Positions 16,130 to 44,762 of a stretch of DNA of 64,000 nt are shown here, piece after piece. How positions within the stretch are numbered: the first letter of the stretch is position 1; the number at the start of each line of letters is the position of its first letter. Made by a program: the position numbers and the translations under genes. The notes under the pieces were generated by a model. The model saw nothing but the letters and a program-made list of their open reading frames with translations, searched no databases and was not told the origin of the DNA. The DNA is from Thiotrichaceae bacterium (GTDB lineage Bacteria; Pseudomonadota; Gammaproteobacteria; UBA5859): positions 445,362 to 509,361 of the forward strand of contig JBGTSY010000001.1 in assembly GCA_041940025.1 (NCBI GenBank), read 5' to 3'.

Positions 16130-16152
16130 TCTAAGGCTAAGAGGAGTTTACC

Positions 16153-18630: not shown

Positions 18631-21252
18631 ATGCGACGAATACTTTCCAATACACTATTTCTAATTTTCTCGTCGACATTCATTTTCGGCTGTCAAACCT
18701 CGCAAACTGGATTGGAAAATTTGCAACAGGCGTCAGACGGTGCGTCTCAACAACAAACCTCCTTGGTGAAACCGAGAGGCTATGTTCTCCCCACCAGCTT
18801 TTCAATAGCGCCTCATACCCAGGATTCCACTCTCTCCACTGTAGGGGATTTAATTGGCTCAATATTAAGTGATGGCGATGGCATGCCCGCAGATTCGGAC
18901 AATTTTCACGTGGTAAAACGCTCGTACGTATATGAGCCCTTACTAGAACAGTTTGGTTTAGTTGACAACATTCTTTTTGGTCTGGCGCAAACTCACTATG
19001 ATGAAAGAGAGAATGTCAATGTTGGTCCATACTCAGCTAGAGTATACATTCGTGACGGATCCAGTTTAGTTCCGGCTACTACTTATCAGGACTGGGTGAT
19101 TGAATCTGAAGTAGAAACGAAAGAGGGCGAAACAGACATTCATACGGTTCGTGCCTGGATTGATAGTTATACAGATTCGGGCCTTCAGTCAATGCACGTA
19201 GAGTTGACAATATACAGCCCAGCTTATGTCGATGGCGAAGGGGCAGTGAGTGATTTTGGACAATGGGATTTACGGGTAAATTTTCCTGCGCAGCCCAATG
19301 ATTTCATGGTGACAAAGGTTCGATATCTGAATAGCGAAGCACTAATACATATTAATAGCCGTAAAACTCATTGGCTGGATTCGGCGAACACCAATGTCGC
19401 ATTGGTTTATCAAGGCGAACTGCACCGAGGTCGTGATAGAGGTTTTGGTAAATTTCGTTTCAGTGATCTAGATTTTTGTCACCAACAATTGGCGGCGGAG
19501 GCAGCACCCTGTTCTTCAGAGGTGCCTGTGCGTGAGGTATCTTACGCCTATAACAAAGAAGGAATGAGTGTACAGCGGGCAGGAGATGTTGCGGTCTATC
19601 GTGATCGGAAACAGTCAGTACAGATCCCAATAGAGTATGGGTTATACAATAGCGTCACCGGAGAGGATATCAAGAATAGTTTTCAGTTTGAATTTCCAAT
19701 CTCTTATACGGACCCCTTGGGACAAGAGCAGTGGGCACGTTACCTCACGGAAAATGGCCGGCACCATTTAGCTGGTTTGACCGCAGGACAACCTCCAGTC
19801 GATTCAACTGTTATTCGGCGACAGATTGCCAATCGTGCAATTGAACGTCCTTATCAAGTCGCGCATCATACTGAAGGTGTGTTATATCAAGTGGTTTCAT
19901 CCAATGAAGGTGTCAGCAATGAGCTTGAGCATTGGAATTGGGAAGTTGAATATGACCGTCATTGGATCTTGAAATATGATGCCCATGACTCAGTTTGGCG
20001 CCGCTGTTTATCGCTATGGCACGAATTGACAGGGTGTGGTGAAGGCGATGCGGATTGGATAGAGTTTGCTGACATGGAGTCATTGACTCACATCGAGCAA
20101 CAGCGACTGCTGAATTATGACATGATCTCCAAAACAAATAATATTCAGTTGGTTTACTTAGAGGATGCTCGTGCCCATTCTGGCGACGGGTTTTACGAAG
20201 CTGGCTATCATGTAGAAACAGGTCAACTAGAGTCGGTTGGTGCGCGTTGGAGCCCTAGTGATGGTGAAGTGATTGAGTTGAATATGCAGGCATCGCTATT
20301 ACTGAAGAAAGAAACAGACACGAACCAATGGTACCGATTCCGCGTCACTGATTCATTACTCTCAAGTCAATTACCGATCTCCTCGGGTGATACAGATCTT
20401 CATGATTGGCAACCTGGAGTCTATCACCTACGCCAACCTGGTAGAAAATTAATGCTCAAAGTAGAGGAAGATGGCTCAAAAAGAGTGGTTCACGAACACT
20501 GGCACGCATTACACCCCAATACCGTATCCGAGAAGGAGATTTCCGACCAGATCCTATTTCGTGGTGGGGAAGACAGTAGCCAGTTGTACAGGTTTCAAAA
20601 TAACGACAGTCAAACACACTTCATGTCCTTAGTCTACGCCAGCGGTGCACAAGAAGGAGAATTGGTGCGCCATAGCGTTTGGGATCTTTGGCAAGTCGAT
20701 AATACTGGTGCGTTGGTGGATTCTGAAGGTAACATACTTACCACCGAGCAACTTGCAGCGGACGAGGCAAATGATCTTGTAAACCAATATCGATGGGTTT
20801 ATCGAGAGGATGGATCTAGTCACCAGACCTTTTTCAAGGATGCCATCGGAGATTGGGTTCAGTTAGCTGCTCCAAGAAGCTTCGAAGCTGTGAAAATTTC
20901 CAAACAAACCGTCTCGTTAAGATATGATTCGCAATTACAAGGATTAATACATCCTATTCGTGATCTAACAAAGCTAGGGTGGCAACTACATGCAGAAACC
21001 GAAAAACATCTGGTGCAAATTCGAGAAGAGATTGAACTGCAAGATAGGGAGACACAAGTAAAATATTTAGCGAAACCAATTGTTCAATTTAATTTGTCTC
21101 AGCACCTGGATGAAAATAGTGTGAGTGGCCCCGATCTTACTCAAGCGCATCACATAGAATTTGATGGCTTACCTGAGGCAGAGCAAACTTCTTTGACCCA
21201 CATGCCAGCCGTCAGTGGGCCAAAATATATCGGTGGTTTACGCACTCAGTGA
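18631..21252 (+). CDS. Large lipoprotein (873 aa) of unknown function
   Basis: Signal peptide with lipobox LIFSSTFIFGC. No recognisable catalytic motif. A good RBS lies upstream. Confidence 0.6.
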   Translation: MRRILSNTLFLIFSSTFIFGCQTSQTGLENLQQASDGASQQQTSLVKPRGYVLPTSFSIAPHTQDSTLSTVGDLIGSILSDGDGMPADSDNFHVVKRSYVYEPLLEQFGLVDNILFGLAQTHYDERENVNVGPYSARVYIRDGSSLVPATTYQDWVIESEVETKEGETDIHTVRAWIDSYTDSGLQSMHVELTIYSPAYVDGEGAVSDFGQWDLRVNFPAQPNDFMVTKVRYLNSEALIHINSRKTHWLDSANTNVALVYQGELHRGRDRGFGKFRFSDLDFCHQQLAAEAAPCSSEVPVREVSYAYNKEGMSVQRAGDVAVYRDRKQSVQIPIEYGLYNSVTGEDIKNSFQFEFPISYTDPLGQEQWARYLTENGRHHLAGLTAGQPPVDSTVIRRQIANRAIERPYQVAHHTEGVLYQVVSSNEGVSNELEHWNWEVEYDRHWILKYDAHDSVWRRCLSLWHELTGCGEGDADWIEFADMESLTHIEQQRLLNYDMISKTNNIQLVYLEDARAHSGDGFYEAGYHVETGQLESVGARWSPSDGEVIELNMQASLLLKKETDTNQWYRFRVTDSLLSSQLPISSGDTDLHDWQPGVYHLRQPGRKLMLKVEEDGSKRVVHEHWHALHPNTVSEKEISDQILFRGGEDSSQLYRFQNNDSQTHFMSLVYASGAQEGELVRHSVWDLWQVDNTGALVDSEGNILTTEQLAADEANDLVNQYRWVYREDGSSHQTFFKDAIGDWVQLAAPRSFEAVKISKQTVSLRYDSQLQGLIHPIRDLTKLGWQLHAETEKHLVQIREEIELQDRETQVKYLAKPIVQFNLSQHLDENSVSGPDLTQAHHIEFDGLPEAEQTSLTHMPAVSGPKYIGGLRTQ

Positions 21253-21315
21253 GTGTCCGCAGAATGATCTAAATTGAACTGACGGTTCTGGTTAGTACAA
21301 TCGGAGTGACATGGA

Positions 21316-22089
21316 TTGCAAGGTGACGCAGCCAGTAAACAAGTTGAAAAAGGAATTCAAATCTATACAAAATCTACTCATAGTGTCACAGATGAGCAGA
21401 TAGCGTACTGGGTGAAACACTGGTTTTCTCAGCAAGAGAAGAAAAAATATTCGGCTTTTCGAACCGCCGAGGACAAGCGTTTATATGCTGTGGCTCATGG
21501 TTTAACAAGATTCGTCTTGTCTCAACATGCGCCTATTGCACCGCGAGATTGGTGCTTTAATTTTAATGAGTACGGCAAACCAGAAATCGCCAATAGTCTA
21601 CCTGATAGTCTGTTTTTCAATTTATCTCATACTAAAGGGCTTGCTGCATGTGCGTTGAGTTGGCATCAGGTATGTGGTGTTGATGTGGAATTAACAGCCC
21701 ACTTGGATGATTTAGAGCAGGTCGCTCAGGAGGTTTACTCTGCTCAGGAATTGAGCCACCTAATGTCATTGAAGGGCCATGAACGTCTGTTTAGATTTTA
21801 TTGGTTGTGGACGCATAAAGAAGCATTTATTAAAGCTTGTGGTATCGGAATGTCATTACCCTTGAAAACTTTTACGATGAAGGGCGAAAAAAATCATTGT
21901 AAAATGGTGTTTCATCCTGGGTTTCCCGGTGATCATGAGCACAGTTTTGATGCCTCCCGATGGGGTTTCTTTTGGCGTGTGCTCCATGATAACTATCAAC
22001 TGACGGTTTCTTCACCTGATCACGATAAGTGTCGAAACAGCGTGATCCATTCATTGGACGCGTTGGATTTTAGTGAGTCATATAACTAA
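21316..22089 (+). CDS. 4'-phosphopantetheinyl transferase, Sfp/EntD/PcpS type
   Basis: Motifs FNLSHTKGLAACAL (the FNxSHS block) and WTHKEAFIKACG (the WxxKEAxxK block). Confidence 0.8.
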   Translation: MQGDAASKQVEKGIQIYTKSTHSVTDEQIAYWVKHWFSQQEKKKYSAFRTAEDKRLYAVAHGLTRFVLSQHAPIAPRDWCFNFNEYGKPEIANSLPDSLFFNLSHTKGLAACALSWHQVCGVDVELTAHLDDLEQVAQEVYSAQELSHLMSLKGHERLFRFYWLWTHKEAFIKACGIGMSLPLKTFTMKGEKNHCKMVFHPGFPGDHEHSFDASRWGFFWRVLHDNYQLTVSSPDHDKCRNSVIHSLDALDFSESYN

Positions 22090-22246
22090 ATTTCAATTTT
22101 TTAGCATATTTTTCGTCATTCATGACTTGTAGTCGGACAAATGGTCTTGTAAATCGATTGCAGTCGGTTCACATTTGTTCTATATAAATAAATATATGAG
22201 TACAAAATATAAGAACTTAGCAAAATTGGAAAGCGGGAGAATTCAA

Positions 22247-23008
22247 ATGATCTATAGAATTTTTGTATCCACCCTATTTGTTATCTCCTTGGGTCTGTCT
22301 GGCACCGCTGCCGCAGAAAAGATGGCGTACGACCTACCGAACGGTGACTATTATGAAGGACAAATTGAAAATGGTGTGAAACAGGGTAAGGGCATTTATC
22401 GCTGGAGCAATGGCGATCGATATGAAGGGGAATGGCACAATAATCAGTTCTCAGGCCAGGGAACATTCACCTTCGCCAATCAAGATCACTACAAGGGTCA
22501 GTGGAAAGATGGACTGTTTTCCGGAAAAGGAACCTATACCTGGGCCACCGGTAGTCGTTATGTGGGAGAATTTAAGAACGGTCAGAAGCATGGATTTGGA
22601 GAATACATTTGGGGTGAAGGAGAACGTTACGAAGGAAATTGGAAGGAAAACAAACGTCACGGTAAGGGGACTCGTTACTGGCCAGACGGAAAAAAATACA
22701 TGGGGGAGTATCGTCATGATAAACGTCATGGGAAAGGGGTAATGACCTGGCCGGGAGGAGAAAAATATGTGGGCGAATACCAAAATGGCCAACAATCGGG
22801 TACGGGTGTATTGACCTGGCCAGATGGGCATCGCTATGAAGGTCAATTTGTGAAGAATAAGAAGACTGGCGAAGGCACATTTCAGTGGCCTAATGGCGAT
22901 AAATACGTGGGCAGATTCGTTGATGATCTACCTGAAGGTGAGAGTACTTGTTATTTTTCCGGACGGGAAGAAAAGTGTATTTATCGCCGCGGTCAGCGAA
23001 TCAATTAG
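22247..23008 (+). CDS. MORN-repeat protein, secreted
   Basis: Signal peptide followed by about 9 tandem 23-aa MORN repeats (Y.G.W.NG..HG.G.). Start chosen at MIYRIF, which has an RBS. Confidence 0.7.
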   Translation: MIYRIFVSTLFVISLGLSGTAAAEKMAYDLPNGDYYEGQIENGVKQGKGIYRWSNGDRYEGEWHNNQFSGQGTFTFANQDHYKGQWKDGLFSGKGTYTWATGSRYVGEFKNGQKHGFGEYIWGEGERYEGNWKENKRHGKGTRYWPDGKKYMGEYRHDKRHGKGVMTWPGGEKYVGEYQNGQQSGTGVLTWPDGHRYEGQFVKNKKTGEGTFQWPNGDKYVGRFVDDLPEGESTCYFSGREEKCIYRRGQRIN

Positions 23009-23072
23009 AATGTGCTCCCACTAATAGGCAGGACGCCATTGCATCTGTCAGGGGATGTTAAGTTAGTGATGA

Positions 23073-24500
23073 CTATTCAGTCTTTGGAAGGGGTACTGTT
23101 TCCAACCATTTACTAACTTGATTGAGATCTTGCACCGTTAAATCACCTACAGCTTGTTTGAGTCGAAAATTGTGGAGAACATAGTCAATACGCGCGAGAT
23201 TAAGATCTCTCTGTGCGTTTAGTAAGGTGCGTTGCGCGTTTAACACATCCATCAAAGTACGGGTACCACTTTCAAAACTCGCTTTAGTGGCTTGTACCGC
23301 CCTTTTATTGGAAACAATCGCTAATTTTTGTGCAGTGACTCTGGTAACTGCCGCGTTAACCAAGTGGAATTGATTCTCTGTGAATATTGCCACTGAACGC
23401 TTTTGAGCATGATAGAGTTCTTCAGCCTCGCGAAACTTATAGTAAGATTGTCTCGTTGCTGCACTCACACCACCACCGCTAAAAATCGGAACAAACAGTT
23501 CTAGACCAAGGCTTTCGGTGTCTGCTGGCGGAATAAATCCAGAGCCGTCCTCAGTGTCTACCCGGTTGATCGCACCGACAAAATTTAAAGTTGGTAGATG
23601 ACCGGATTGGTTTTTTTGCGTCTCACGTTGTGCTGCTTGCACGCCTTGCTTCGAAGCAAATAGTTCTAAATTGGATTCCAAGGCGCGGGTGATCCAAGCG
23701 TCCGTACTGTTTGGGGTCGGTTTGGAAATGGGGAATTCTGCTTTCAAACGCCCAATCTCCCGAATACTGGTGCCGGTTAGGTTTTCCAGATTACGAAGCG
23801 CCAGTGCCAATCCACTTTTTGCGAGCAAGATTTGGGTTTGGCTCAGATCGGCGGCTGCCTGCGCTTCGAATACAGCGGTATTGGCCATCAAACCCAACTC
23901 AAAACGTTTATTCGCCTGTTGCAGCTGGAAGTCCACCGATTGTTGTTCTCGGGTAGCGAATTCTAAGTCTTCTAGAGCACGCAATACGTCGAAGTAGGTT
24001 TCAGTGACTCTCAGAATGAGATTCTGTTGTTCTGCATCAAACTTCCATTCAGCTTGATTTCTGAGCGCTTTGGATTGTTGATAATCGTACCAGCGATCAA
24101 TTTGAAACAGAGGTTGTCGGAGTCGCAGAGAAAGGGATTGGCTTCGATAGTCTATCGCCCTTTCTTGGGTAACGAAGAGACAAGTGGGGTCAAACTGGTT
24201 CAGGTTGGCTACATTAAAGTCGCAATCAGAAAGTGCGTCGGTATTAAATTCTGGTGTGCCTGGACCGTCATAGGAGTTCTCTGTATAGGTTGCCGATGCG
24301 GAGATGTTGGGTAGTAGACGAGACCGACCTATCTTGGGTAGTTCACGACCCGCTCGAAGGGCAGCTCTGGCAGCTATCCACTGGTGATCATGTTCTGTTG
24401 CCAACTCATATATGGCGGTTAGCTCCGAGGAGTGAGTGGTAGTTGGTAGAAGAGCGATTAAAGCAAGTGCCAGCGGCAAGAGACGAATTTGGTACATCAT
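23073..24500 (-). CDS. TolC-family outer membrane efflux protein
   Basis: Signal peptide MMYQIRLLPLALALIALLP. Two repeated alpha-helical/beta-barrel halves typical of OEP/TolC. Start chosen at the MMYQ methionine. Confidence 0.85.
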   Translation of the reverse strand: MMYQIRLLPLALALIALLPTTTHSSELTAIYELATEHDHQWIAARAALRAGRELPKIGRSRLLPNISASATYTENSYDGPGTPEFNTDALSDCDFNVANLNQFDPTCLFVTQERAIDYRSQSLSLRLRQPLFQIDRWYDYQQSKALRNQAEWKFDAEQQNLILRVTETYFDVLRALEDLEFATREQQSVDFQLQQANKRFELGLMANTAVFEAQAAADLSQTQILLAKSGLALALRNLENLTGTSIREIGRLKAEFPISKPTPNSTDAWITRALESNLELFASKQGVQAAQRETQKNQSGHLPTLNFVGAINRVDTEDGSGFIPPADTESLGLELFVPIFSGGGVSAATRQSYYKFREAEELYHAQKRSVAIFTENQFHLVNAAVTRVTAQKLAIVSNKRAVQATKASFESGTRTLMDVLNAQRTLLNAQRDLNLARIDYVLHNFRLKQAVGDLTVQDLNQVSKWLETVPLPKTE

Positions 24501-25404
24501 GTTGTTTAACTTTCTTTTAATAATTACGACTTCAATGAATTCAGAGCGAATTACCCATACAGATCTGGATCTGCCATTTTGCACTGTTGCAGGTATCCGC
24601 ATTCATTTGGCCAGTATCTCAAACTTTGAACTCTCAGTCGGGCCAATCTCGATTGTGATGAATTTCAGATAATCTTCTCAGTAGTCAATTTTTCACGTTT
24701 AGAGTTTCTTCTCGTGTTATCGATTCATTTTTTACTGATAAACTCATCCTAAGGGGGCCCTATTGCTAATTTTAAGTGTGGTTAGTAAGCCATCCAAGGG
24801 CTAATTTCTGTATCTTTAGAAAATTAACATATATTGTCATTTATGATAGCCTCGATTAAATAGTCCAAATACGATTATATTTCATAAATTGTCACAACAA
24901 CTCATTGTTAGCAAACATGTCCATAGATTTCCAATGATCGCGTAATAGAACCTATGGAATGGAGTAGTCGAAACTCATAAAGACAACTATAAATACAGGT
25001 GTTTAATCCATTTGTTGCGGAAATATTTGGTCGATAAACTAAAATGACGTTAAATTAACTGAATTCGCTTTTTATAATGACTTTAGTCCCTGGTCCTCAG
25101 TTATATTTTCCTTCAAAATGAGCAAAATCGGGTCGACACAGAGGGTCACTTTGAGACTATTCAAAAGGCACGCGATCCCTTAGCAATCATTGTAATTACT
25201 TTGTCTAAAAGTATTAGATGAAAAATATGATTATAAATCAATAGATTGAAATATCGAAAAGATGGATTGGAGACGATAAAAAGTACAGGCGCAAAAGATG
25301 GGCTAGACAGTTCTTCGCAACAGAAACTGCAATGGAATACAAAGTTTCACCTCCTCAAGCAAGAAGTGTTTTAACAATCAATACAGTTTAGATGAGATGT
25401 TTCA

Positions 25405-26178
25405 TTGATGAGTGTTAATTTGCATAAAAATCCATGGTTCCATATACCGCGTCCTAGTGAGAACGCGCGAGTGAGACTATTCTGTTTTAGCTACGCCGGT
25501 GGCAGCGCTCAAGTTTTCCACGACTGGCCGAATTATTTGTCAGATCAAATAGAAGTGTATGCCATTCAGCTTCCTGGCCGTGGATCCCGTCTGCTCGAAG
25601 CGCCTCTGGTTTCTATGGAAGAGTTGGTTCAAGAACTGTATTTAGCCTTGGCGGCTGAAATCAAGGTTCCCTTCGCATTTTTCGGGCATAGTATGGGGGC
25701 GCAAGTGGCGTTCGATCTGCTTCAGCGAATGCGGGCAGAGGGGACCGCCCTGCCTAGCATGCTCATGGTGAGTGGTCGTCGGGCCCCTCAACTTAAGCAC
25801 CGAAAAAGAAAGATTTATGATTTACCTGAAGATGAGTTTAAACGAGAATTAGATCGATTGAATGGCACACCCGCAGAAGTACTTGAACAACCTGAGTTGA
25901 TGGAGTTGTTAAGTCCGGCGTTGAGAGCGGATTTCCAGTTAATTGAAACATGGTGTTATCAACCTAAACCGCCAATTAACATTCCAATTGCCGCCTTTGG
26001 TGGCATCGAAGACGTGGAGGTGAGTTTTAGTGATTTGGATGCCTGGAGTCAGCAGACTGATTCTGTTTTTTCTGTGCAGATGTTTCGGGGAGACCATTTT
26101 TTCTTGAATTCAGATAAGGAAGAGTTATTGACTCGAATTCAATATTTGTTGGCACCAGAACAGCATGCCGATGTGTAA
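25405..26178 (+). CDS. Type II thioesterase (alpha/beta hydrolase, GrsT/RifR/PchC-like)
   Basis: LFCFSYAGGSAQVF N-terminal block. GHSMGAQVA nucleophile elbow (GxSxG). Conserved C-terminal GDHFF (His). Confidence 0.8.
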   Translation: MMSVNLHKNPWFHIPRPSENARVRLFCFSYAGGSAQVFHDWPNYLSDQIEVYAIQLPGRGSRLLEAPLVSMEELVQELYLALAAEIKVPFAFFGHSMGAQVAFDLLQRMRAEGTALPSMLMVSGRRAPQLKHRKRKIYDLPEDEFKRELDRLNGTPAEVLEQPELMELLSPALRADFQLIETWCYQPKPPINIPIAAFGGIEDVEVSFSDLDAWSQQTDSVFSVQMFRGDHFFLNSDKEELLTRIQYLLAPEQHADV

Positions 26179-26216
26179 AAATGCATTCTTAGAGAAAAGA
26201 GATAAAGAAGTGAACA

Positions 26217-27620: not shown

Positions 27621-30600
27621 ACGCGATCATTAGATGGTTTGCATATAATCGGGTTGCAGCGAATCTGATGATGGCGCTTATCTTGATTTCAGGACTGTTA
27701 GCTTTACCAGAGATCAGAAAAGAGATCTTACCGAATATGGAAATGGATGCGATTTCCATTACGACCGCATTTCCTGGTGCCTCTCCGTCTGATGTGGAAG
27801 AAGCCGTTTGTCAGCGCATTGAATCAAATTTACTAGGGATGGATGGAGTTAAAAATTTAACCTCTCTTGCGAGTGAAGGTATTTGTCAGACTACTGTCGC
27901 CGTTGATTATGGGGTTAATGTTCGAGAGGTGGTAGAGAACATTAAAGTGACTGTGAGCGGTATCGGCACTTTTCCAAAAGAGGTCATCACTCCGATAGTG
28001 AAGCAAATTAAAGTCTCTCCAATGGTGGCAAAAGTTGTGGTTTCTGGCGATGTGGACGATGCAGTGTTAAAAACTGTCGCCGAAAAAGTAAAGGCAGATC
28101 TATTTGCGTTACCTGAAATCACACAGGTCTCCTTTGATAATATAAAGAAAACTGAGATATCAATTGAAGTCTCAGAAGTTGCCTTACAGCGTTATCGACT
28201 CAGTTTTGCTGAAATAGCAGCACGAATTCGCGAGTCGTCCGTCAATGTACCAGGTGGCAGTATCAATACTACTGCGGGAAAGGTTGCTGTTAGTATTCAG
28301 GGGAGACGTGCAAATGCAGAGCAATTTGAAAATATCGTTATTCGTGCATTACCTGATGGCGCACATATTAGATTAAAAGATGTTGCGACGGTGACGGAAG
28401 GGTTCGCCGTTCAGCGTATTGAAGGACGCTATAATGGCCGTCCAGCCATCGCAATCAGTGCATTTCGTACAGGTAATCAAAGTATCTTACAGATTGCTGA
28501 CTCTATGCATCAGTATGTGAATGAGCAAGAAAAAGGATTGCCGCAAGGGGTGTATCTAAATGTCTGGCAGGATAATTCAAGCTACCTAAAAAGTCGCATA
28601 AAGTTAATGTCGAACAATGCCGTCGGTGGCTTTTTCTTGGTTTGGGCGATATTAATGTTGTTCATGCGTTTTCAGCTCTCGTTCTGGACAAGCTTAGGGA
28701 TCCCCATATCTTTCTTAGGAACCTTGTGGTTATTGCCTTACTTTGGCGGTTCGATCAATATGGTTTCCCTGTTCGCCTTTATCCTGGTGCTCGGCATTGT
28801 TGTTGATGATGCCATTATTGTGGGGGAACAAGTTTATACCGAACATGGTCGAGGTAAGAGTGGGACGGAAGCCGCAGTAAGCGGTGCTCAAGAAGTAGCT
28901 AAGCCGGTAATTTATGCTGTTTGCACGACAATCTTAATATTTTTACCTCTACTATTCCTCCCTGGACCACAAGGTAAATTGATGTACGCCATTCCTCTGG
29001 TGGTGACCATTACTCTATTTTTTTCTTTGGTGGAATCCTTGTTAATTTTACCTGCCCATTTATCTACAATCCGACCTGAGAATCATCAGCAAACAGGATG
29101 GTTTGACAGAATGCACAAGACATTTGATGACGGCATTGAAAATTTTGTCGATCAGTATTACCGACCATTTTTGAGTCGTACATTGGAATTGCGATATCTC
29201 ACTGTGGCTCTCTTTGTTGGAATGATGTTTTTAACGCTTTCTTTAATGATTGGAGGGTGGCTCAAGGTCAACTGGTTTCCATCAATCGAGGCAGATGTCG
29301 CTATCGCCAATTTGAGTTTTGCCAAGCAGACGCCTCACGAGGTGACCGCTGATGCTATGCAGCGAGTGGAGCAAGCTGCTGTTGAGTTGAGGAAAAAATT
29401 GAGAGAGGAAAATGGTGAAGATCAAATTACCAATTTGGTTACCATTATTGGAATAAAAGGTGAGAATACAGGTCGAATCGTGGTGGATTTAGCACCTTCT
29501 GAAGCGCGTAAAGTCTCTGGTGAAGAAATCAGTAGACGTTGGCGGGAGACGGTCGGCGAAATCCCTGGTGCCACTGAGTTTAAAATCGAATCCACCTTAG
29601 ATACCACCGGTCCCACATTAGACATAGAATTCATTGGCCAACATCTCGATGCTCTAGAATTAGCGGCAAATTCCTTCAGACGTCATTTGGAAACCTATCC
29701 TGCTGTATACGAAATTCGTGATTCTTTACAAAGCTCGAAACAGGAGATACAGATTCAGTTAAAGCCTCGTGCCCAGGAACTGGGTCTGAGTGTGAATGAA
29801 TTAGCGGCCCAAGTACGCCAGGCGTTTTACGGTACTCAGGTGCAAACCGTTCATCGAGGCGAAGAGGAGGTAGATGTCATAGTACGTTATCCAGAATCTT
29901 CAAGAGAGTCTCTGTGGCATCTGGAAAATATGAACGTCATGTTGCGATCGGGTGCCGTGGCACCTCTCCACAGTGTCGCCCTACTGTCCTATGGCGAAGG
30001 GCCATCTGAAATCAGACGTAAAAACGGTGCCAGAACTGTTCGTGTCAGAGCCTATGTGGATAGCGGGATGGATGGCTCCGATCTTGTAGAATCGCATGTT
30101 AAATCAGAGTTTCTAAATAAGTTAGAAAATAATTTTCCAGGAGTCAGTTGGCAACCTTCCGGTGCGCAAAAAAATAAACAGGAATTTTTAGACTATTTAT
30201 CCCGTAGTTATATTCTGGCGCTTTTGGCAATGTATATTTTAATGGCAGTGTTGTTTCGATCTTATTCGCAACCATTAATGATTTTGTGGGCGGTGCCCTT
30301 TGGTGCAATTGGCGCACTGATTGGTCACCTCTTCATTGGTATAGAGGTGACCTTGTGGTCTTTGGTGGGTATCTTTGCAGTGAGCGGGGTAGTGGTAAAT
30401 GACAACTTGGTGCTGATTGATTTTATCAACAAGGATTTAGCGCGCGGCGCGCGCTTGTTGGATGCCATTAAGGATGCCGGTGCGGAACGATTTAGACCGA
30501 TTGTGTTGACCTCAGTGACGACTTTTGGTGGATTAACACCAATGATGTTGGAGCAAAGCTTACAAGCGAAATTTATGATTCCGATGGCGGTTTCTCTCGC

Positions 30601-30736
30601 TTTCGGTGTGGTTTTTGCGACCTTTGTGAGTCTCCTTTTGGTGCCAGCCACTTACCATATACTAGACGACATTCAGCAATTGATCGGTGTTGCAGGGGCT
30701 AGATTTGGAGATAATAAATCAATGAAAAAGCCGTAA
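27617..30736 (+). CDS. RND efflux permease (AcrB/HAE1-like, 12 TM)
   Basis: 1039 aa. Start overlaps the MFP stop (GTGA). Canonical AcrB N-terminus MNAIIRWFAYNRV... Confidence 0.9.
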   Translation: MNAIIRWFAYNRVAANLMMALILISGLLALPEIRKEILPNMEMDAISITTAFPGASPSDVEEAVCQRIESNLLGMDGVKNLTSLASEGICQTTVAVDYGVNVREVVENIKVTVSGIGTFPKEVITPIVKQIKVSPMVAKVVVSGDVDDAVLKTVAEKVKADLFALPEITQVSFDNIKKTEISIEVSEVALQRYRLSFAEIAARIRESSVNVPGGSINTTAGKVAVSIQGRRANAEQFENIVIRALPDGAHIRLKDVATVTEGFAVQRIEGRYNGRPAIAISAFRTGNQSILQIADSMHQYVNEQEKGLPQGVYLNVWQDNSSYLKSRIKLMSNNAVGGFFLVWAILMLFMRFQLSFWTSLGIPISFLGTLWLLPYFGGSINMVSLFAFILVLGIVVDDAIIVGEQVYTEHGRGKSGTEAAVSGAQEVAKPVIYAVCTTILIFLPLLFLPGPQGKLMYAIPLVVTITLFFSLVESLLILPAHLSTIRPENHQQTGWFDRMHKTFDDGIENFVDQYYRPFLSRTLELRYLTVALFVGMMFLTLSLMIGGWLKVNWFPSIEADVAIANLSFAKQTPHEVTADAMQRVEQAAVELRKKLREENGEDQITNLVTIIGIKGENTGRIVVDLAPSEARKVSGEEISRRWRETVGEIPGATEFKIESTLDTTGPTLDIEFIGQHLDALELAANSFRRHLETYPAVYEIRDSLQSSKQEIQIQLKPRAQELGLSVNELAAQVRQAFYGTQVQTVHRGEEEVDVIVRYPESSRESLWHLENMNVMLRSGAVAPLHSVALLSYGEGPSEIRRKNGARTVRVRAYVDSGMDGSDLVESHVKSEFLNKLENNFPGVSWQPSGAQKNKQEFLDYLSRSYILALLAMYILMAVLFRSYSQPLMILWAVPFGAIGALIGHLFIGIEVTLWSLVGIFAVSGVVVNDNLVLIDFINKDLARGARLLDAIKDAGAERFRPIVLTSVTTFGGLTPMMLEQSLQAKFMIPMAVSLAFGVVFATFVSLLLVPATYHILDDIQQLIGVAGARFGDNKSMKKP

Positions 30737-30756
30737 ACCGATTCTCGGACTCAGCA

Positions 30757-31554
30757 CTAAAAACTCATACGAAATACTATTCCTGCGCCACCGCCTACAG
30801 CCATGGGCAAAAACAGTGGTTTTCTTTTATGATCATTTTTAAAGATAGTACCGGTCGATAAATAAGCCAATGACCAACCGAAGAGAACCTGAGAGCCGTA
30901 GTGTTTATCGTCACTTATTCGCGCCAACCCAGGAAGGGTAGAGGCTGTATAATATGCAGCACGTAACCAAGGTTGACGAGTCATACGAGCTAATGTGATA
31001 AGAGGCAATGCGCCATATAGTGCATGTCCACTGACTCCATTATTATCGTCAAATGGTCGCCAGCTGCTAGCGCCTTCGGTGGGACGTCCAGCACCGGTTG
31101 CGATACCCAACAAAAGATGCTGCGGCGCAGCCAATAGCGCAGCCCTCAATGCTCGGTTTCCCCATTTGCCCAGATTATTTGTGCCAATAAAATGAAATCT
31201 TTCTGATAATAAATAAACACTCGCGTAGATTGGAAGCGAGATAAGAAGTTGGCCTGCATCACCAATTTGAGTGCCTATCTCAAATAGTTCAAGATTAGTA
31301 TTGGTATTAATATGTTGTTGGAACTCAGATCTAAGCGTCGCATCCAAATTGCTGTTGGCAAACAGCGCCGCACCTAAACTGAGATAACCCAGCTGAGCTA
31401 GGTTATCTGGCTGATAATAAGCAAGATAGTCTCGCTTTATTTGCTCCTGTATTGGCAGCTGAATCTGAGCGTTGATCTGCTCGCAGACTAAAAAGAGACT
31501 GATAAGCAGCCCATAAACCGGGTAGCGGTATCTATTTTCCAATTGATTGGACAA
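30757..31554 (-). CDS. Secreted/membrane protein with degenerate PAP2 (acid phosphatase) motifs
   Basis: Signal peptide. Blocks R-x-RP (AGRPTEGASSWRP), SGH (GVSGHA) and R-x5-H (ARISDDKHYG) resemble PAP2 KX6RP/PSGH/SRX5HX3D. C-terminal Phe. Confidence 0.4.
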   Translation of the reverse strand: MSNQLENRYRYPVYGLLISLFLVCEQINAQIQLPIQEQIKRDYLAYYQPDNLAQLGYLSLGAALFANSNLDATLRSEFQQHINTNTNLELFEIGTQIGDAGQLLISLPIYASVYLLSERFHFIGTNNLGKWGNRALRAALLAAPQHLLLGIATGAGRPTEGASSWRPFDDNNGVSGHALYGALPLITLARMTRQPWLRAAYYTASTLPGLARISDDKHYGSQVLFGWSLAYLSTGTIFKNDHKRKPLFLPMAVGGGAGIVFRMSF

Positions 31555-31850: not shown

Positions 31851-33053
31851 ATGGAGGCGCTACAGTCGGGATCTGATGTACTTTTTATATTATTAGGCGC
31901 CATCATGGTGCTAGCGATGCATTCTGGATTTGCCTTTTTAGAAGTGGGTACGGTACGCCATAAGAATCAGGTCAATGCGCTGGCCAAAATTATGGCTGAT
32001 TTTGCGGTCTCCACAGTCGTGTATTTTTTTATTGGCTATAGTGTTGCATACGGAGTGGGTTTCATGGAGTCGGCTGAAACCTTAAGCGAAAAAAATGGCT
32101 ACGAGTTAGTGAAGTTTTTCTTCCTGCTTACTTTTGCCGCTGCAATTCCGGCAATCATCTCAGGTGGAATTGCAGAACGTGCCAAGTTTTATCCTAATCT
32201 GATCGCCACCGCGATTTTTGTGGGAGTGATCTATCCATTGTTTGAAGGTATCAGTTGGAACGGTTTATTTGGTGTCCAAAGCTGGATCGAGAGGCAATTT
32301 GGCTTTGCATTCCATGATTTTGCCGGTTCCATTGTGGTTCACGCAATGGGTGGGTGGTTGGCGCTGGGGTGTGTCGTCATGTTGGGGGCGCGTAAGGGTC
32401 GCTATACTAAATCGGGGGAGACTATTGGTATTCCGCCATCCAGCATCCCATTCTTGGCTCTGGGTTCATGGATCCTGACCGTGGGCTGGTTTGGATTTAA
32501 TGTGATGTCTGCGCAAACTATTGAGTCCGTTTCCGGGTTGGTTGCGATGAACTCTTTAATGGCCATGGTGGGCGGAATCTTAGGCGCCTTGGTAGTAGGA
32601 AAGAATGATCCGGGATTTCTTCACAATGGGCCTTTAGCAGGTTTGGTAGCGGTCTGTGCAGGATCCGATGTGATGCATCCGGTTGGTGCTCTGGCCACGG
32701 GGTTAATCGCGGGGGTGATTTTTGTGGTGACTTTTACCCTCACGCAAAATCGATGGAAGATTGACGATGTGTTGGGGGTGTGGCCCTTGCACGGTCTGTG
32801 TGGTCTTTGGGGAGGCTTAGCCTGTGGCATATTCGGTACCACTGCCTTTGGTGGTTTAGGAGGAGTGAGTTTGATGGCTCAGATAGTGGGCAGTGGTCTT
32901 GGGATTGGTCTTGCTCTGGTGGGGGGGTTTGCCGTATATGGAATGCTCAAATTCACTGTGGGGATTAGACTCACCGAAGAGGAGGAATATCAGGGGGCAG
33001 ATCTGAGCATTCATAAAATAGGTTCGAATCCAGAGGCGGATTCTCATCCCTAG
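31851..33053 (+). CDS. amtB: Ammonium transporter (Amt family)
   Basis: 400 aa, 11-12 TM. Typical Amt N-terminus (DVLFILLGAIMVLAMHSGFAFLEVG) and conserved His-containing helices. Confidence 0.9.
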   Translation: MEALQSGSDVLFILLGAIMVLAMHSGFAFLEVGTVRHKNQVNALAKIMADFAVSTVVYFFIGYSVAYGVGFMESAETLSEKNGYELVKFFFLLTFAAAIPAIISGGIAERAKFYPNLIATAIFVGVIYPLFEGISWNGLFGVQSWIERQFGFAFHDFAGSIVVHAMGGWLALGCVVMLGARKGRYTKSGETIGIPPSSIPFLALGSWILTVGWFGFNVMSAQTIESVSGLVAMNSLMAMVGGILGALVVGKNDPGFLHNGPLAGLVAVCAGSDVMHPVGALATGLIAGVIFVVTFTLTQNRWKIDDVLGVWPLHGLCGLWGGLACGIFGTTAFGGLGGVSLMAQIVGSGLGIGLALVGGFAVYGMLKFTVGIRLTEEEEYQGADLSIHKIGSNPEADSHP

Positions 33054-33247
33054 GTAGCCACTCAATTCTTCAGAAATGAGTGGCCCCAATTAGGTCACTA
33101 TAGACGGATTAATAGTCGCTGAAGACTACTTCCTAATGCTTGCTGCCCGCTGCAAGGCGTATTTGCTTACCGCAAAATAACCTATTTCATTTTCTTTATT
33201 TTGTTTGTCTGTTCAAGGACTAAGGATCTGGTTTGGAAAGCTAAGAG

Positions 33248-33661
33248 CTAAAACTTTAATTTCCCTCCACCGGGTCCTAAAAGTCCGCCTGCACCTGGGC
33301 CGCCACCCATTCCACCGCCCACGTCACCTGCGCCTGGGACCACTAACGAGCTTGCTTGTTCGCGCTGTAACTCACGTAACTCCTCAACCGCTTGCTGTAC
33401 TGCGATTTCTGCTGCGGGACCAAAACCGGCGACGGCCTCTTTAAGTGATTTAGCTTTAATATCAAAGCTTAAGGGTAAAGAGCCAACGGGCGTCATGAGT
33501 TGCGCCTGGCCAACAAATAGCACCTCTCGCGTACTATCCACTTCACCCTCGGCAGTTAGGGGAGTCATAATCCGTATACTACCGGAACGGCGATCGCTCA
33601 CTACTTCTTCACGGTAAAGGTCGCTGGCATTCATGCCAATTTCCACTTTGTCTTCGGCCAT
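33248..33661 (-). CDS. Conserved hypothetical cytoplasmic protein with Gly-rich C-terminal tail
   Basis: 137-aa ORF with a strong coding signal. The tail is GAGDVGGGMGGGPGAGGLLGPGGGKLKF. No assignable family. Confidence 0.5.
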   Translation of the reverse strand: MAEDKVEIGMNASDLYREEVVSDRRSGSIRIMTPLTAEGEVDSTREVLFVGQAQLMTPVGSLPLSFDIKAKSLKEAVAGFGPAAEIAVQQAVEELRELQREQASSLVVPGAGDVGGGMGGGPGAGGLLGPGGGKLKF

Positions 33662-34092
33662 GTCTAATCCTTATTTTCGATTAATTGCTCATATAGCGCG
33701 CAGGGTACGGCATCTTGTGCGTGAGTGCCAGTCGCCCTGGCGTAAATGCAGGATCTGTATGTCAGTCTCATCTGTCACAGGGAAATTCTCGCATTACGCA
33801 TTAGGAAATGCTGTCCAGATCCTTGTCGAATCAATGTGGGCATGAGCGAGTTGCAAACTGCACGGATGAGGCTGGGAATCAATCCGGAGGACTGATTTTA
33901 GGATTATACACTTGGATGCCAAACAGGGAAGCGTTAGGTAGCTGGAATAGATTTTTCGCTAGCACTTTGCCTGTTCGATAGAGCATATGCTGGCGGCGCT
34001 TATAGTTGTCAGAAGACGACAGGGGGCCAAACTTAAGAAGGCTCGGCAACGGATGTGATCATCGTGTGCAAAAACGCGAATCGAATTGAAGC

Positions 34093-34791
34093 CTAGTTTG
34101 ATGTGACTTCAGATTCGAAATCTCGGTTGGAAAGGTCGTTAAGATGAATATCACTCGCTGAGCCCAGTATGCCTCCATATACTTCTGCATAAGCTTTTGC
34201 CATTTCTTCTCTGGGAAAATCGGCGAAATCTCCTCTCTCTTTCAGGTATTCCATATGTTTGTTTCCTGAGTTATCTAGTGCATGAAATAAAGAGTCTGAT
34301 GTTCCATCAAACTCCAATGGTTTGACGTTGGCTTTTTCACATAAACTTAAATTGAAAGCAGGAGTACATTTAACCCATCTGTTGTTCAGAAAGAATCCGG
34401 TATTGCCATGAAACGCAAATATATCCGTTTGCATCAATTGCTTGAGTTTTGGTGAGGTCAAATGGTTGCGGACATCTGCAAAACCGAGACGGGTGGGGAT
34501 CCCCACTGCCCTGCCGACTGCCGCCAGTAGGATTGCCTTGGGCACACAATAGCCTTCTTTTTTGTCAAGTACACAACTTGCTCGAAAAGTATCGTCACCA
34601 CCGGAAAAGGCGTAGGGATTATATCGGATATCGTCTCGAACGGCGTAGTAGAGCTTAACGGCTTGAGTGATTTGATCCGTCTCCGTGCCAATCACGTCAC
34701 GAGCGTATTTGATTATTGTTGAGTTATCAGAATCAATATAGTTTGTTGGTTGTAAGTAAAGGCCTAATGTTTCTTCTGTCATGATGGGCAC
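34093..34791 (-). CDS. Transglutaminase-like cysteine peptidase superfamily protein
   Basis: Cys block KEGYCVPKAILLAAVGRAVGIPTR and downstream His/Asp blocks (FHGNTGFFLNNRWV). Confidence 0.65.
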   Translation of the reverse strand: MPIMTEETLGLYLQPTNYIDSDNSTIIKYARDVIGTETDQITQAVKLYYAVRDDIRYNPYAFSGGDDTFRASCVLDKKEGYCVPKAILLAAVGRAVGIPTRLGFADVRNHLTSPKLKQLMQTDIFAFHGNTGFFLNNRWVKCTPAFNLSLCEKANVKPLEFDGTSDSLFHALDNSGNKHMEYLKERGDFADFPREEMAKAYAEVYGGILGSASDIHLNDLSNRDFESEVTSN

Positions 34792-35062
34792 AACTTTGTA
34801 TAGTTTATGATTGAAGTATTTATTAGTGATGTACTGGCGTTCAAATTACCGAATTGCATTGATAATGACAACTCTTGCAAGGCGCAGTAATCAATTCACT
34901 GCTTATAATCTCAATTCACGGGCATTCTGGTTGAGAGAATCAGTGTCGGTTATTAGAGGGGATATTTGTCTAAAATGTGGCTCAAGAAGTGCAGTGAATA
35001 TAGTGAATTGCTGAAACCTATTTAGAATACCATCTTAGCTGCGCGCGTATACTTATATTAAT

Positions 35063-36217
35063 CTAAAAAACCAAATTGACCGCAGCAGTGATGGTGTTAA
35101 TTTCGTCATCTATAGTCGGACCCCCGAAAACAGTCGGTATCGAATCAAATAGTCCATTTGCGTTCTCCCGTCCATCCAGTTCCGTGAAGCCATATTCAAA
35201 TTTGACCGCTACTGAATCAGTCATACTAAACTTGATCCCAAGTGTCGCGGTGTGTTGATCCTGATTAAAGAATTCTACATCTTCCGCATCGGCTACACTG
35301 TAAGTAAAATGTGGAAAGAGATGACCAAATTCATATCCAATGGTGGCAAACCAGTTTTGAGAGCTGGAGAAAATAGAATTAGAAACATCGCGGTGCGCCC
35401 ACTCGGCGAGAAATCTGATTTGATTCCAACTGATATCGACACCTACTGAACTGAAGACCACTTCACCGTCAGTGGTATCTTCAATACCAAATGAATTAAT
35501 CGCAGAAACCGGTAGCCCTGTGGCCGCGGCCAGAGTGTCTACTAACTCGGCGGTGAGTTTTGGAACCACATGGTGGCTGGCACGCACAGTAATATTTGGG
35601 TGAATCAGCTCTAATATAATCCCACCTATGCGAAATTCCCCGAGCGTGAAAATTTCACCAATTAAAGGTAAATCTGTCTCAGGAGTTTGTGCAATATATA
35701 TTTGACTAACAAAGTCGAAAGGAGGAGCGGCGATTTTTCCAACGGCATTCAATCCATTTATTGCCGTGATTGGAACATTGGCAAATCCATACAGCTCTTC
35801 TGGTGGGGTGATCCAGGGGTAGCTCACACCAACATCATAGTATTGAGAAATCATAAAACCAGGGAATCTGAAGCGTCCCGCTTGTAACTCAACCTGATTA
35901 TTGGGTTGGTAAGCAAGATAGGCCCACTCGGCGTCAATTTCCCAACTATTTTTACCTCTTGCGAGTAACTGAGACACGAGTTGAATAGAACTCTCATTGG
36001 GTGTGAAACTCGTTTGGATGCCAATTACAGAGAGTTTTGAGAAATTCATCTCATCTTTGACACCTGTATAGGACACATCCTGGTCATTCTGACTAAAGCC
36101 GGCGGTCAAGAATCCGTTTGTCTGAATGCTTCGCTCAGCGTATGCCCCAGTACAGAAGCAGCAAAACAGCACTAATAATGATATTTCTTTCATTTCTCGA
36201 TACGTAAAGATTTTCAT
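35063..36217 (-). CDS. Outer membrane beta-barrel protein (porin-like), unknown specificity
   Basis: Signal peptide (LLVLFCCFCTGAYA), alternating amphipathic beta-strands, C-terminal ...VNLVF. The start is ambiguous between 36217 and 36193; the ORF track extends to 36301. Confidence 0.5.
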   Translation of the reverse strand: MKIFTYREMKEISLLVLFCCFCTGAYAERSIQTNGFLTAGFSQNDQDVSYTGVKDEMNFSKLSVIGIQTSFTPNESSIQLVSQLLARGKNSWEIDAEWAYLAYQPNNQVELQAGRFRFPGFMISQYYDVGVSYPWITPPEELYGFANVPITAINGLNAVGKIAAPPFDFVSQIYIAQTPETDLPLIGEIFTLGEFRIGGIILELIHPNITVRASHHVVPKLTAELVDTLAAATGLPVSAINSFGIEDTTDGEVVFSSVGVDISWNQIRFLAEWAHRDVSNSIFSSSQNWFATIGYEFGHLFPHFTYSVADAEDVEFFNQDQHTATLGIKFSMTDSVAVKFEYGFTELDGRENANGLFDSIPTVFGGPTIDDEINTITAAVNLVF

Positions 36218-36961
36218 GTATTGCCTTTGCCAGGTCGATTCACTTCTTGGTCCGTTCAAAATAGGTGTTGAATTGCCCCACTCATTTTCAACCGCGGTCA
36301 TGCGTAGAGAACATTCTTATTGGTTGATATATTTTTCCTAAAACGCTAAAACCGATAATCTGCTGCGTCAGGAATCCTTTCCAACCGGTACCCAAATTTA
36401 AACGGTGAGGCTCGACTGAGTACATTTAGCTACCTAGCGCACTGGCACTCAAACCGCCTGTCGTTTCGATAGCAATTAACATGCCGCTAATCTGTCCATT
36501 CTAAAGTGTTTCTACAGCCTGGTAGAGTCTTTGTGCCCCACGCCTTGATGAAATCTGTGTCCATGGCGTTCTGAATTTTGCAATATGTTGGTCAATAATG
36601 ATACTAATCGACCAGAATGTTGTGTACTAAATTTTTTTTGGGTCGGTGGGCTAATTAAACCGCATTAGGAGTAGGAGTATTCTAAAGATAATGTCACTAG
36701 CCCATCCTCTTTATTCAATTTGCGTGCGGTGTCACGGCTATATTATGGATGCATCAAAGAGACCACATTATCTAAATGAAATGTGAGGAAATCATTACAG
36801 TTGTCGATAAATTAATTAGGCGGAAGCAAGCGTATTTGGGTGTGACCCCTGCTTTATCTTGTGTGCCGATATAATTATAAAAAGAAAATAAGCTTTGTAT
36901 TAAATGTTATCGCTAAGTAACAAATTTTAAATTGTTAATATTCTTTCCAGATCCTTAATCG

Positions 36962-36988
36962 TTTTTTGAATTTTTTGAATTTTTTGTA
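36962..36988. repeat. Short tandem repeat (ttttttgaa)x2 plus a degenerate copy, in an AT-rich intergenic region
   Basis: Direct reading of the sequence ttttttgaattttttgaattttttgta. Confidence 0.6.
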
Positions 36989-37188
36989 TTTTACGACGAG
37001 CTTCAATAGCTATGATTTATTGAGAGACTCAACTGAATTCAATAATAGAAAAACCATTTGTTAGTCCACGGGTTATATAGGGTGAAAGAGTACTTAAATT
37101 GGGGATTAAATATTAAGACTCGTTAACACATTAAGTGTACTAGTCCACATATTTGATTCGTTTAATTATATATTTTTACTAATAACGA

Positions 37189-38118
37189 ATGAATAGCGAG
37201 ATGAATCTAAAAAAACTAAAGGCACGGGTGTTGTTTGCTGGGTTATTCAACTTCATGGTACACCGACGTACCGTTTTATCTATTATTGGTTGGCTCAATA
37301 GACGTTTTAATTTTCTTTCCACTTTCTTTGTCATGTATCCAGCATCTGAAGAGTACGCTAAATCTTACGTTTGTCCTAGCCAGAGGGAAAAGATGCGCTG
37401 GTCACCTTGGATTGTCGGTCTCTACATTCAGAACGGAAAGTTAGGATTATCCGCAGTGATTTCATCGACAGAACGCGATTTTCGCAATCAAGACAATGTC
37501 CCCAATCTGAAGCGTATGTATGACAAAGCGTATGAGTTGGCAACAATAGTCGGCGCGACGCAAGTCAGCTTCGCGGGTGTCTTACCTGGTGTGCTGAATA
37601 AGCAAAGAATTGTAAAAGGTTCCGTCGAAGCACAAGTCACTGTTGAAACGGTCATAAAGGCGGAAGAGTCGCTTCGACGATCTCTCGATTTAACAGAGGA
37701 TACGCCAATAATAATATTCGGCAGCGCTGGCTTCATTGGGCGTCGAGTTGTGCGTCGTTTATCTCATCGAAATCTATTTTTGGTTGATAAGGCAGATCCC
37801 AAAACTGTAGAGAATACATCTTGGTATCAATCATTAAGAGGAATGCCAGCCATTTTATTGAACCTTGCTAGCCAGGATGCACTAATACAAAATCTACCCA
37901 ACTTGTGGCGTGAAGTTGTGGTGCTAAACGAGGTCTATCCCGAACCCGAGCCAGAAACGGTAAGCGCGTTAGGTGCGATGGGATGTGCTGCCTATCATAT
38001 TATTGGTTTGAGAGCGTTCACGTTGCCACCATTTCCAAAGGCCTATAGGGGAGGGATACCTTGTTGCGCGGGAAGGCTTTCCCACGGCATGGAGGCATTG
38101 GTTAGAAAGCTCAATTAA
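37189..38118 (+). CDS. NAD(P)-binding Rossmann protein resembling the long-chain acyl-ACP reductase (AAR) family
   Basis: IIIFGSAGFIGRRVVRRL dinucleotide-binding motif. The upstream blocks RWSPWIV and GATQVSFAGVLPGVL parallel cyanobacterial AAR blocks WSSAPPQIV, GIDISALGGFTSII and AVVGATGDIGSAV. This is recalled similarity, not a computed alignment. Confidence 0.45.
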   Translation: MNSEMNLKKLKARVLFAGLFNFMVHRRTVLSIIGWLNRRFNFLSTFFVMYPASEEYAKSYVCPSQREKMRWSPWIVGLYIQNGKLGLSAVISSTERDFRNQDNVPNLKRMYDKAYELATIVGATQVSFAGVLPGVLNKQRIVKGSVEAQVTVETVIKAEESLRRSLDLTEDTPIIIFGSAGFIGRRVVRRLSHRNLFLVDKADPKTVENTSWYQSLRGMPAILLNLASQDALIQNLPNLWREVVVLNEVYPEPEPETVSALGAMGCAAYHIIGLRAFTLPPFPKAYRGGIPCCAGRLSHGMEALVRKLN

Positions 38119-44755: not shown

Positions 44756-44762
44756 GGCATTT

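Follow-up and report, generated by a model that had tools for sequence, protein, structure and literature searches.

We analysed a 64-kb stretch of the Thiotrichaceae bacterium contig JBGTSY010000001.1 (the window, by which we mean this whole stretch), calling its open reading frames (ORFs), scanning them against Pfam and NCBIfam, and mapping the part between 15 and 42 kb. Two elements of that part concern us here. Between 21316 and 30736 lie genes for an Sfp-type phosphopantetheinyl transferase (PPTase), a MORN-repeat protein, a TolC-family channel, a stand-alone type II thioesterase (TEII), and the periplasmic adaptor (membrane fusion protein, MFP) and permease of a resistance-nodulation-division (RND) pump; genes for TEII, MFP, RND, and MORN proteins recur together in other gammaproteobacteria, in several cases directly downstream of a nonribosomal peptide synthetase (NRPS). 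Beyond the pump is a gene for a 309-aa protein whose predicted fold is that of acyl-acyl carrier protein (ACP) reductase (AAR) and of the terminal amidation domain (TAD) found in an NRPS.

PPTase, thioesterase and exporter genes

The PPTase carries the PF01648 domain (52.8 bits, cut-off 25; E = 4.7e-14), matches the Sfp structures 1QR0 and 4MRT (E = 2.4e-17, the Sfp alignment spanning residues 36-190), and keeps the Mg/CoA motifs GVDVE (121-125) and WTHKEAFIKA (165-174); the N-terminal half-domain AASDHPPT_N (PF22624) scored 23.9 bits, under its cut-off of 27. The best NCBIfam match was HetI, with 95.5 bits against a cut-off of 370. A PfaE (polyunsaturated fatty acid, PUFA) or HetI type was considered and dropped, the HetI score being far under the cut-off and no named subtype being assignable. 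No second PF01648 protein was found in the window. The MORN gene follows the PPTase gene after 85 bp, and its product has eight PF02493 repeats (E = 1.6e-59) and a probable start at M25 (position 22247), with a predicted signal peptide ending in AAA, before EK.

The TEII scored 165.8 bits for PF00975 (E = 2.3e-48) and matched, in the PDB, 6VAP (E = 6.5e-48), RifR (E = 5.7e-40), the RedJ-type 3QMV, SrfD, and YbtT; its triad of Ser96 (within GHSMG, 94-98), Asp203, and His231 is invariant among the aligned homologues. The permease (PF00873, E = 1.2e-162), the MFP (TIGR01730, 150 bits against a cut-off of 94.9), and the TolC-type outer-membrane factor (PF02321, E = 6.7e-57; TIGR01844, 293 bits against a cut-off of 225) make up a tripartite RND exporter. 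The TEII and MFP genes are 39 bp apart and the MFP and RND genes overlap by 4 bp; TEII-MFP-RND is probably one operon, with TEII as its first gene.

The window ORFs of at least 100 aa are all free of Condensation, AMP-binding, ketosynthase, and PP-binding domains, and a six-frame search of ORFs of at least 45 aa with five carrier-protein queries returned no carrier-protein-like ORF (best E = 0.85). An initial annotation, made from the sequence alone, had named the Sfp-type PPTase, the stand-alone TEII, the tripartite RND exporter, a PAP2 protein, and an outer-membrane beta-barrel (porin-like), and had seen no NRPS, polyketide synthase (PKS), or stand-alone ACP in the 64 kb; our scans confirm these observations.

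We then compared all window proteins with 80 TEII loci from a species-representative genome collection, taken among the matches listed and fetched with ~10 kb on each side. Outside the genus, the identity of TEII homologues falls to ~50%. The order TEII-MFP-RND-MORN, hereafter the cassette order, was found in five places, i.e., in Ketobacter (L003), in strain HdN1 (L092), and in three gammaproteobacterial loci from metagenome-assembled genomes (MAGs; L006, L007, and L008), and a Pseudomonadales MAG (L077) has TEII-MFP-RND without MORN. The best three TEII matches among the matches listed (L006-L008) all carry the cassette. TEII, MFP, RND, and MORN are the only proteins common to the window and the Ketobacter, HdN1, and MAG loci: the MFP is 37-42% identical to the adaptor 3' of TEII in Ketobacter-type loci, the permease is 52% identical over 1020 aa to that of the Ketobacter cassette, and MORN homologues of 37-42% identity lie directly 3' of the RND gene in Ketobacter, HdN1, and the three MAG loci.

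Four loci (L003, L006, L007, and L077), three of them with MORN, have a multimodular NRPS directly 5' of the TEII-pump block; this NRPS ends in C-A-T-TE in Ketobacter and likewise in a TE domain in L077. Location of TEII beside an NRPS or PKS cluster is thus observed at four orthologous TEII-pump loci and not in the 64 kb of the window. In L010 an NRPS is again upstream of TEII, and the contig stops before any pump gene. An ORF of at least 1000 aa is present in 38 of the 57 TEII loci that are at least 12 kb long, and 27 of those 38 are NRPS-like. Nineteen of the 80 loci, most of them from Acidobacteriota, Chloroflexota, and cyanobacteria, encode a PPTase 30-38% identical to that of the window; it lies directly 3' of TEII except in L042, where it lies ~3 kb before TEII. 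On this comparison, the co-location of PPTase and TEII appears to be more than chance.

Two further observations concern these loci. Five gammaproteobacterial loci besides the window (L003, 15754-17163; L006; L007; L008; L092) encode a MORN protein with a signal peptide in synteny with the RND pump; we know of no established function for bacterial MORN proteins, and our literature search on TEII with RND and MORN, or on the Ketobacter NRPS, found nothing relevant. HdN1 (FP929140, 1.945-1.966 Mb) and the Moraxellaceae MAG L008 have a TEII-MFP-RND-MORN-kinase block with no adjoining NRPS; in HdN1, GSP_synth and DUF350 genes, not an NRPS, precede the aminotransferase gene, and genes for a glycosyltransferase and a family-less 638-aa protein lie upstream of those for a condensation-like protein and a major facilitator superfamily (MFS) protein.

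Conservation and surroundings of the region

Synteny was followed from EngB to the end of the fetched locus in two relatives, GCA_002432655.1 (L086, as far as the transglutaminase-like gene) and GCA_003490045.1 (L087, as far as the 137-aa ORF), and both keep the order EngB-cyt c-DsbA-EEP-873-aa protein-PPTase-MORN-TolC-TEII-MFP-RND-PAP2-Amt. Between the window and L086, synonymous divergence (dS) is 0.7-2.1, and the ratio of nonsynonymous to synonymous divergence (dN/dS) is 0.03-0.13 for all genes, which indicates purifying selection (PPTase 0.076, TEII 0.093, MFP 0.061, RND 0.040, MORN 0.071, TolC 0.062, and, for comparison, DsbA 0.115). Because dN/dS is low at a dS of 1.1-1.9 (PPTase, TEII, MFP, RND, and MORN), the cassette genes are maintained and are not decaying relics. 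Few genes of the region have a dN as high as that of the PPTase (0.147), and the PPTase homologues are 100% and 76% identical and then, outside the genus, at most 45%, a fall-off that settles the question of a housekeeping role neither way. In L087 the 873-aa, RND, and PAP2 genes are each split and the TolC-TEII spacer contains a run of N; the splits probably reflect assembly quality and not pseudogenization.

The 873-aa predicted lipoprotein is encoded 63 bp 5' of the PPTase gene on the same strand and is kept in the relatives (69% identity, dN/dS = 0.116). It has no match in Pfam, NCBIfam, PADLOC, or the PDB, and its single-sequence AlphaFold2 (AF2) model was unusable (pLDDT 33.8); whether it belongs with the cassette is uncertain. 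The PADLOC defence models matched none of the window's unknown proteins.

The spacer of ~800 bp between the TolC and TEII genes contains blocks that are identical or nearly identical to those of both relatives, although dS in the flanking genes is 1.1-1.3. Synonymous sites in the coding sequences of these relatives are saturated. One block, GTCACAACAACTCATTGTTAG, carries an AACAA/TTGTT inverted repeat, and a second block measures ~110 bp (around 25015-25125). Binding sites for a regulator, or a small RNA, could account for these blocks. Rfam families were matched neither in the spacer nor elsewhere in the window, and promoter and terminator scans over 18.4-38.3 kb gave counts at chance level. 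Siderophore export was considered and rejected: the best Fur box near the TEII promoter has 6/19 mismatches, and window-wide counts are close to the shuffle expectation.

The mapped features are collected in Table 1. The other window ORFs of at least 100 aa encode transporters, two-component proteins, PolA, enzymes of the lipopolysaccharide (LPS) core, a GGDEF-EAL protein, and acyl-CoA dehydrogenases. GC content is even (0.39-0.49), the sole compositional anomaly in the window being a GC of 0.365-0.38 at 43000-48000, in the part of the LPS-core cluster with the O-antigen-ligase, methyltransferase, and kinase genes.

Table 1 Features mapped between 15 and 42 kb of the window
Feature	Position	Strand	Remarks
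EngB	15043-15651	-	
Two c-type cytochromes	15803-16779	+	
DsbA	16905-17558	+	
EEP-family protein	17587-18423	+	
873-aa predicted lipoprotein without family	18631-21252	+	lipobox FIFG/C, residues 17-21
Sfp-type PPTase, 257 aa, TTG start	21316-22089	+	PF01648
Secreted MORN-repeat protein	22175-23008	+	PF02493
TolC-family outer-membrane channel	23073-24602	-	PF02321, TIGR01844; divergent from TEII operon
TolC/TEII divergent control region	24603-25404	.	conserved non-coding blocks
Type II thioesterase (TEII), stand-alone	25405-26178	+	PF00975
MFP, RND periplasmic adaptor	26217-27620	+	TIGR01730
RND inner-membrane permease	27617-30736	+	PF00873
PAP2	30757-31554	-	
Amt	31851-33053	+	
137-aa ORF	33248-33661	-	
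Transglutaminase-like gene	34093-34791	-	
Porin-like barrel	35063-36301	-	
AAR/TAD-fold ORF, 309 aa	37189-38118	+	
DUF2959	38132-38791	-	
HldD	38876-39823	-	
HldE	39969-41393	-	

The AAR/TAD-fold protein and its family

The 309-aa protein has no match in Pfam or NCBIfam, nor in the PDB by phmmer. When a profile of 35 family members was run against the PDB (hmmsearch, E up to 10), it missed the AAR chains and 9E4S and matched only P-loops of short-chain dehydrogenases/reductases (SDRs), and hhalign against true AAR aligned just the 22-residue P-loop, with a probability of 2.9%. The alignment-based AF2 model, on the other hand, is of high confidence (pLDDT 93.5, pTM 0.89), and structure searches with it single out two proteins, cyanobacterial AAR (PDB 6JZQ/6JZU) and the CarI TAD of the carmabin NRPS (PDB 9E4S), which have the two-domain AAR/TAD fold. 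The resemblance to cyanobacterial AAR proposed in the initial annotation therefore holds for the modelled fold and fails every sequence and profile test; the protein belongs neither to the AAR family nor to the NRPS-embedded TAD family.

TAD and AAR have in common their two-domain architecture and an invariant catalytic Cys beside the NAD nicotinamide, and in TAD a (T)TG motif marks the junction of the domains and an Asp after strand 2 confers NAD specificity (bioRxiv 10.1101/2024.10.28.620694). The elements conserved in our family are, in order, FAG130, G178-x-G-x-x-G (GSAGFIG), D200, NEVYPEP (247-253), H270, and IPC292C293A, where C292-C293 is near-invariant and starts a short helix after the Rossmann domain. 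As modelled, the protein has the TAD fold, and it shares with TAD an invariant Cys and the predicted NAD-selective Asp that follows strand 2. Cys292/293 would most likely form an acyl-enzyme thioester, and Asp200, located where Rossmann strand 2 ends, would direct the use of NAD(H), so that a fatty-acyl thioester would be reduced or otherwise processed.

Identity to cyanobacterial AAR is 12-16%, with no profile-level homology. Additional conserved helices at the N-terminus and a doublet of Cys residues set the 309-aa protein apart from AAR, and Asp200 predicts NAD(H) rather than NADPH; a domain of the AAR partner, aldehyde-deformylating oxygenase, is found in no window ORF. The CarI TAD is a C-terminal NRPS domain of ~400 aa with a TTG motif, whereas the 309-aa protein is stand-alone and has FAG in its place. 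The family is probably distinct, too, from the discrete TAD homologues described as 'cluster 4' (bioRxiv 10.1101/2024.10.28.620694), because the profile search did not reach 9E4S. It is rare: 1.84 billion representatives yielded 412 clusters at E <= 1e-3, of which the best 150 are all stand-alone proteins of ~200-450 aa. The deposited gene model (P0001) has 241 aa and begins at Met69. Its start is probably wrong, and the 309-aa ORF the better model, because the omitted N-terminal 68 residues are conserved in the family alignment and folded in the AF2 model.

For 86 genomic contexts of the family, we grouped the proteins encoded nearby by clustering. PPTase, TEII, and carrier protein occur in none of the 86, and an RND pump occurs in one. 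Among the 57 loci with at least 1.2 kb of downstream sequence, the next gene on the same strand encodes a HisKA_7TM (7TM) histidine kinase in 35 (L089, L090/L091, L094, and 32 more among L096-L175, e.g., L113, 7001-7885 and the gene after it), and a response regulator follows the kinase in 16 loci. The FadL/TodX outer-membrane fatty-acid channel is encoded near the family gene in four loci, a PlsC-type acyltransferase directly upstream in one, and in-frame fusions to an AMP-binding acyl-CoA-synthetase-like enzyme (PF00501, E = 8.9e-77) are found on independent metagenome contigs (L138, 453-3506; L140, 1507-3450). These neighbours and fusions speak for a fatty-acyl thioester as the substrate, and so for chemistry like that of AAR. 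The neighbours tie the AAR/TAD-fold family to signalling and not to carrier-protein toolkits.

The clade of the window copy, which has no kinase, comprises L096, 82% identical and syntenic with DUF2959-HldD-HldE, and a clade of ~57% identity in which an unannotated 307-aa protein comes next wherever downstream sequence exists. Homologues of the 7TM kinase, FadL, the acyl-CoA synthetase, and the 307-aa protein ('f6') are absent from the window, apart from a generic kinase-core likeness to the hybrid kinase at 5407-7338. The window copy itself lies 6.5 kb from the pump with five unrelated genes on mixed strands between, and the comparative evidence suggests that it is independent of the PPTase/TEII cassette.

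Explanations and comparison with known systems

The simplest reading of PPTase-MORN, TolC, and TEII-MFP-RND is that they form one cassette for priming, proofreading, and export. The Sfp-type PPTase would transfer phosphopantetheine onto carrier domains, TEII would hydrolyse mis-primed or stalled acyl or aminoacyl thioesters on those carriers, and the product would be exported by the MFP-RND-TolC pump acting with the periplasmic MORN protein. Most likely, the cassette serves in trans an NRPS-type assembly line whose genes lie elsewhere in the genome, because it matches the block that flanks a multimodular NRPS (C-A-T-TE) in Ketobacter-like gammaproteobacteria; loss of the synthetase is less likely. 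We give a probability of roughly one half to the combined reading, i.e., that 21316-30736 is an NRPS-type cassette detached from its synthetase and that the AAR/TAD-fold gene is independent of it.

Several observations weigh against this combined reading. Neither a synthetase nor a carrier protein is present in the 25 kb upstream or the 38 kb downstream of TEII, and the aminotransferase, condensation-like protein, MFS protein, and Ser/Thr kinase of the Ketobacter cluster are absent from the window. TolC and PPTase stand outside the cassette in the other genomes (10 kb on each side). HdN1 and L008 have TEII-MFP-RND-MORN without an adjoining NRPS, which leaves room for a cassette function that needs no synthetase. 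As to the AAR/TAD-fold protein, Cys292/293 would correspond to AAR Cys294 and TAD Cys2238 by sequence order and secondary structure only, and the 7TM histidine kinase, the dominant neighbour of the family, is missing beside the window copy. It is conceivable, if doubtful, that the AAR/TAD superfamily has a third branch of stand-alone proteins to which the 309-aa protein belongs, a Cys- and NAD(H)-dependent enzyme acting on fatty-acyl thioesters; the coupling to a 7TM kinase and a response regulator in most lineages, and the occasional fusion to an acyl-CoA synthetase, would suggest that it produces or clears a lipid signal sensed by the kinase, with the window copy as a kinase-less offshoot beside LPS-core genes, and that, separately, TEII-MFP-RND-MORN may work without a megasynthase.

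The PPTase might instead be the sole, PcpS-like housekeeping PPTase, close to TEII by coincidence, with TEII-MFP-RND-MORN being the leftover of a lost NRPS or a general efflux system. We consider this unlikely. The window has no synthase in its 64 kb, the cassettes of other genomes lack the PPTase, purifying selection on it is as strong as on its housekeeping neighbours, and, to our knowledge, many Pseudomonadales have no AcpS, all of which would suit a housekeeping enzyme. However, the coincidence, which the initial annotation had itself allowed for, is weakened by the TEII-PPTase adjacency in 19/80 loci and by the position of the PPTase gene only 85 bp 5' of a cassette member, MORN; the PPTase has no close orthologues outside the genus (from 76% to at most 45%) and one of the highest dN values of the region, and the TEII, with its intact triad and its dN/dS of 0.093, is unlike a relic. 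Less probable again is the proposal of the initial annotation that PPTase, TEII, the AAR-like enzyme, and the pump form a single module that makes and exports a lipid and works on the housekeeping ACP, where TEII or the AAR-like enzyme would free a fatty acid or an aldehyde from acyl-ACP and RND/TolC would export it. In its favour, TEII has medium-chain acyl-ACP hydrolases among its relatives (human OLAH 4XJV, E = 2.3e-28; also JGI names), the AAR fold is real in the model of the AAR-like protein, its family is tied elsewhere to genes for fatty-acid activation and uptake, and the HdN1 and L008 cassettes without adjoining NRPS are compatible with such a role. Yet the PAP2, Amt, 137-aa, transglutaminase-like, and porin genes, on mixed strands, separate the pump from the AAR-like gene, TEII or PPTase accompanies that family in 0/86 contexts, no Ketobacter-type cassette locus has an AAR-like gene within 10 kb, and four orthologous TEII-MFP-RND blocks lie directly downstream of an NRPS; moreover, a dedicated Sfp-type PPTase would be needless for the housekeeping ACP unless AcpS is missing. 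The single-pathway lipid model is accordingly possible but poorly supported. What stands of the one carrier-protein toolkit originally envisaged is that PPTase and TEII go with the RND/TolC exporter; the AAR-like gene is not shown to be in the same module.

The initial annotation had also described the region as non-backbone DNA and, potentially, a variable island. Horizontal acquisition of a strain-variable genomic island would be in keeping with the accessory character of the encoded functions and with the position between the widely conserved polA-engB-cyt c4-dsbA block and the LPS-core genes, but GC is uniform, the window contains no tRNA gene and none of its ORFs an integrase or transposase domain, and two relatives with dS > 1 keep identical gene order. 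An island is thus very improbable and, at the genus level, largely refuted.

The reading that we prefer, a detached NRPS-type cassette and an independent AAR/TAD-fold gene, matters for genome mining, since mining tools define clusters around megasynthases and can miss helper and export parts encoded in trans (PPTase, TEII, RND/TolC, and MORN). The recurring linkage of secreted MORN proteins with an RND pump would give a first starting point for working out what bacterial MORN proteins do. The AAR/TAD-fold family, which has no Pfam or NCBIfam model, would widen to stand-alone proteins a superfamily that is of interest for biofuels and natural products through fatty aldehyde formation and peptide C-terminal amidation, and its tight coupling to a 7TM histidine kinase is a lead to a lipid-related signalling system.

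Among known systems, the NRPS locus of Ketobacter alkanivorans GI5 (CP022684, 445-466 kb) resembles the window in TEII (49% identity), MFP (41%), RND (52%), and MORN (42%). The order TEII-MFP-RND is shared, whereas MORN is 3' of RND in Ketobacter and beside the PPTase in the window. In Ketobacter, genes for a 5484-aa NRPS, an aminotransferase, a condensation-like protein, and an MFS protein precede the block and one for a Ser/Thr kinase comes after it, none of which the window contains; a TolC gene, in contrast, adjoins the cassette in the window and not in Ketobacter. The helper pairs of Sfp and TEII (Sfp/SrfD of surfactin, RifR, RedJ, and YbtT) belong to the same two enzyme families by profile, structure, and motifs, but such classical helpers are encoded inside or beside synthetase clusters, whereas no synthetase lies within 25-38 kb in the window. 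NRPS clusters with a dedicated RND exporter occur in Pseudomonas syringae (PseABC beside syr/syp) and in Acinetobacter baumannii (A1S_0112-0119, with an RND gene and a PPTase); the shared concept is that of a tripartite RND pump and a PPTase encoded along with a lipopeptide NRPS, and both of these clusters contain their synthetase. Compared with these systems, what is new in the window would be an NRPS-type accessory and export cassette that is detached, as a variant of a known arrangement, together with a MORN-RND link that has previously gone unremarked.

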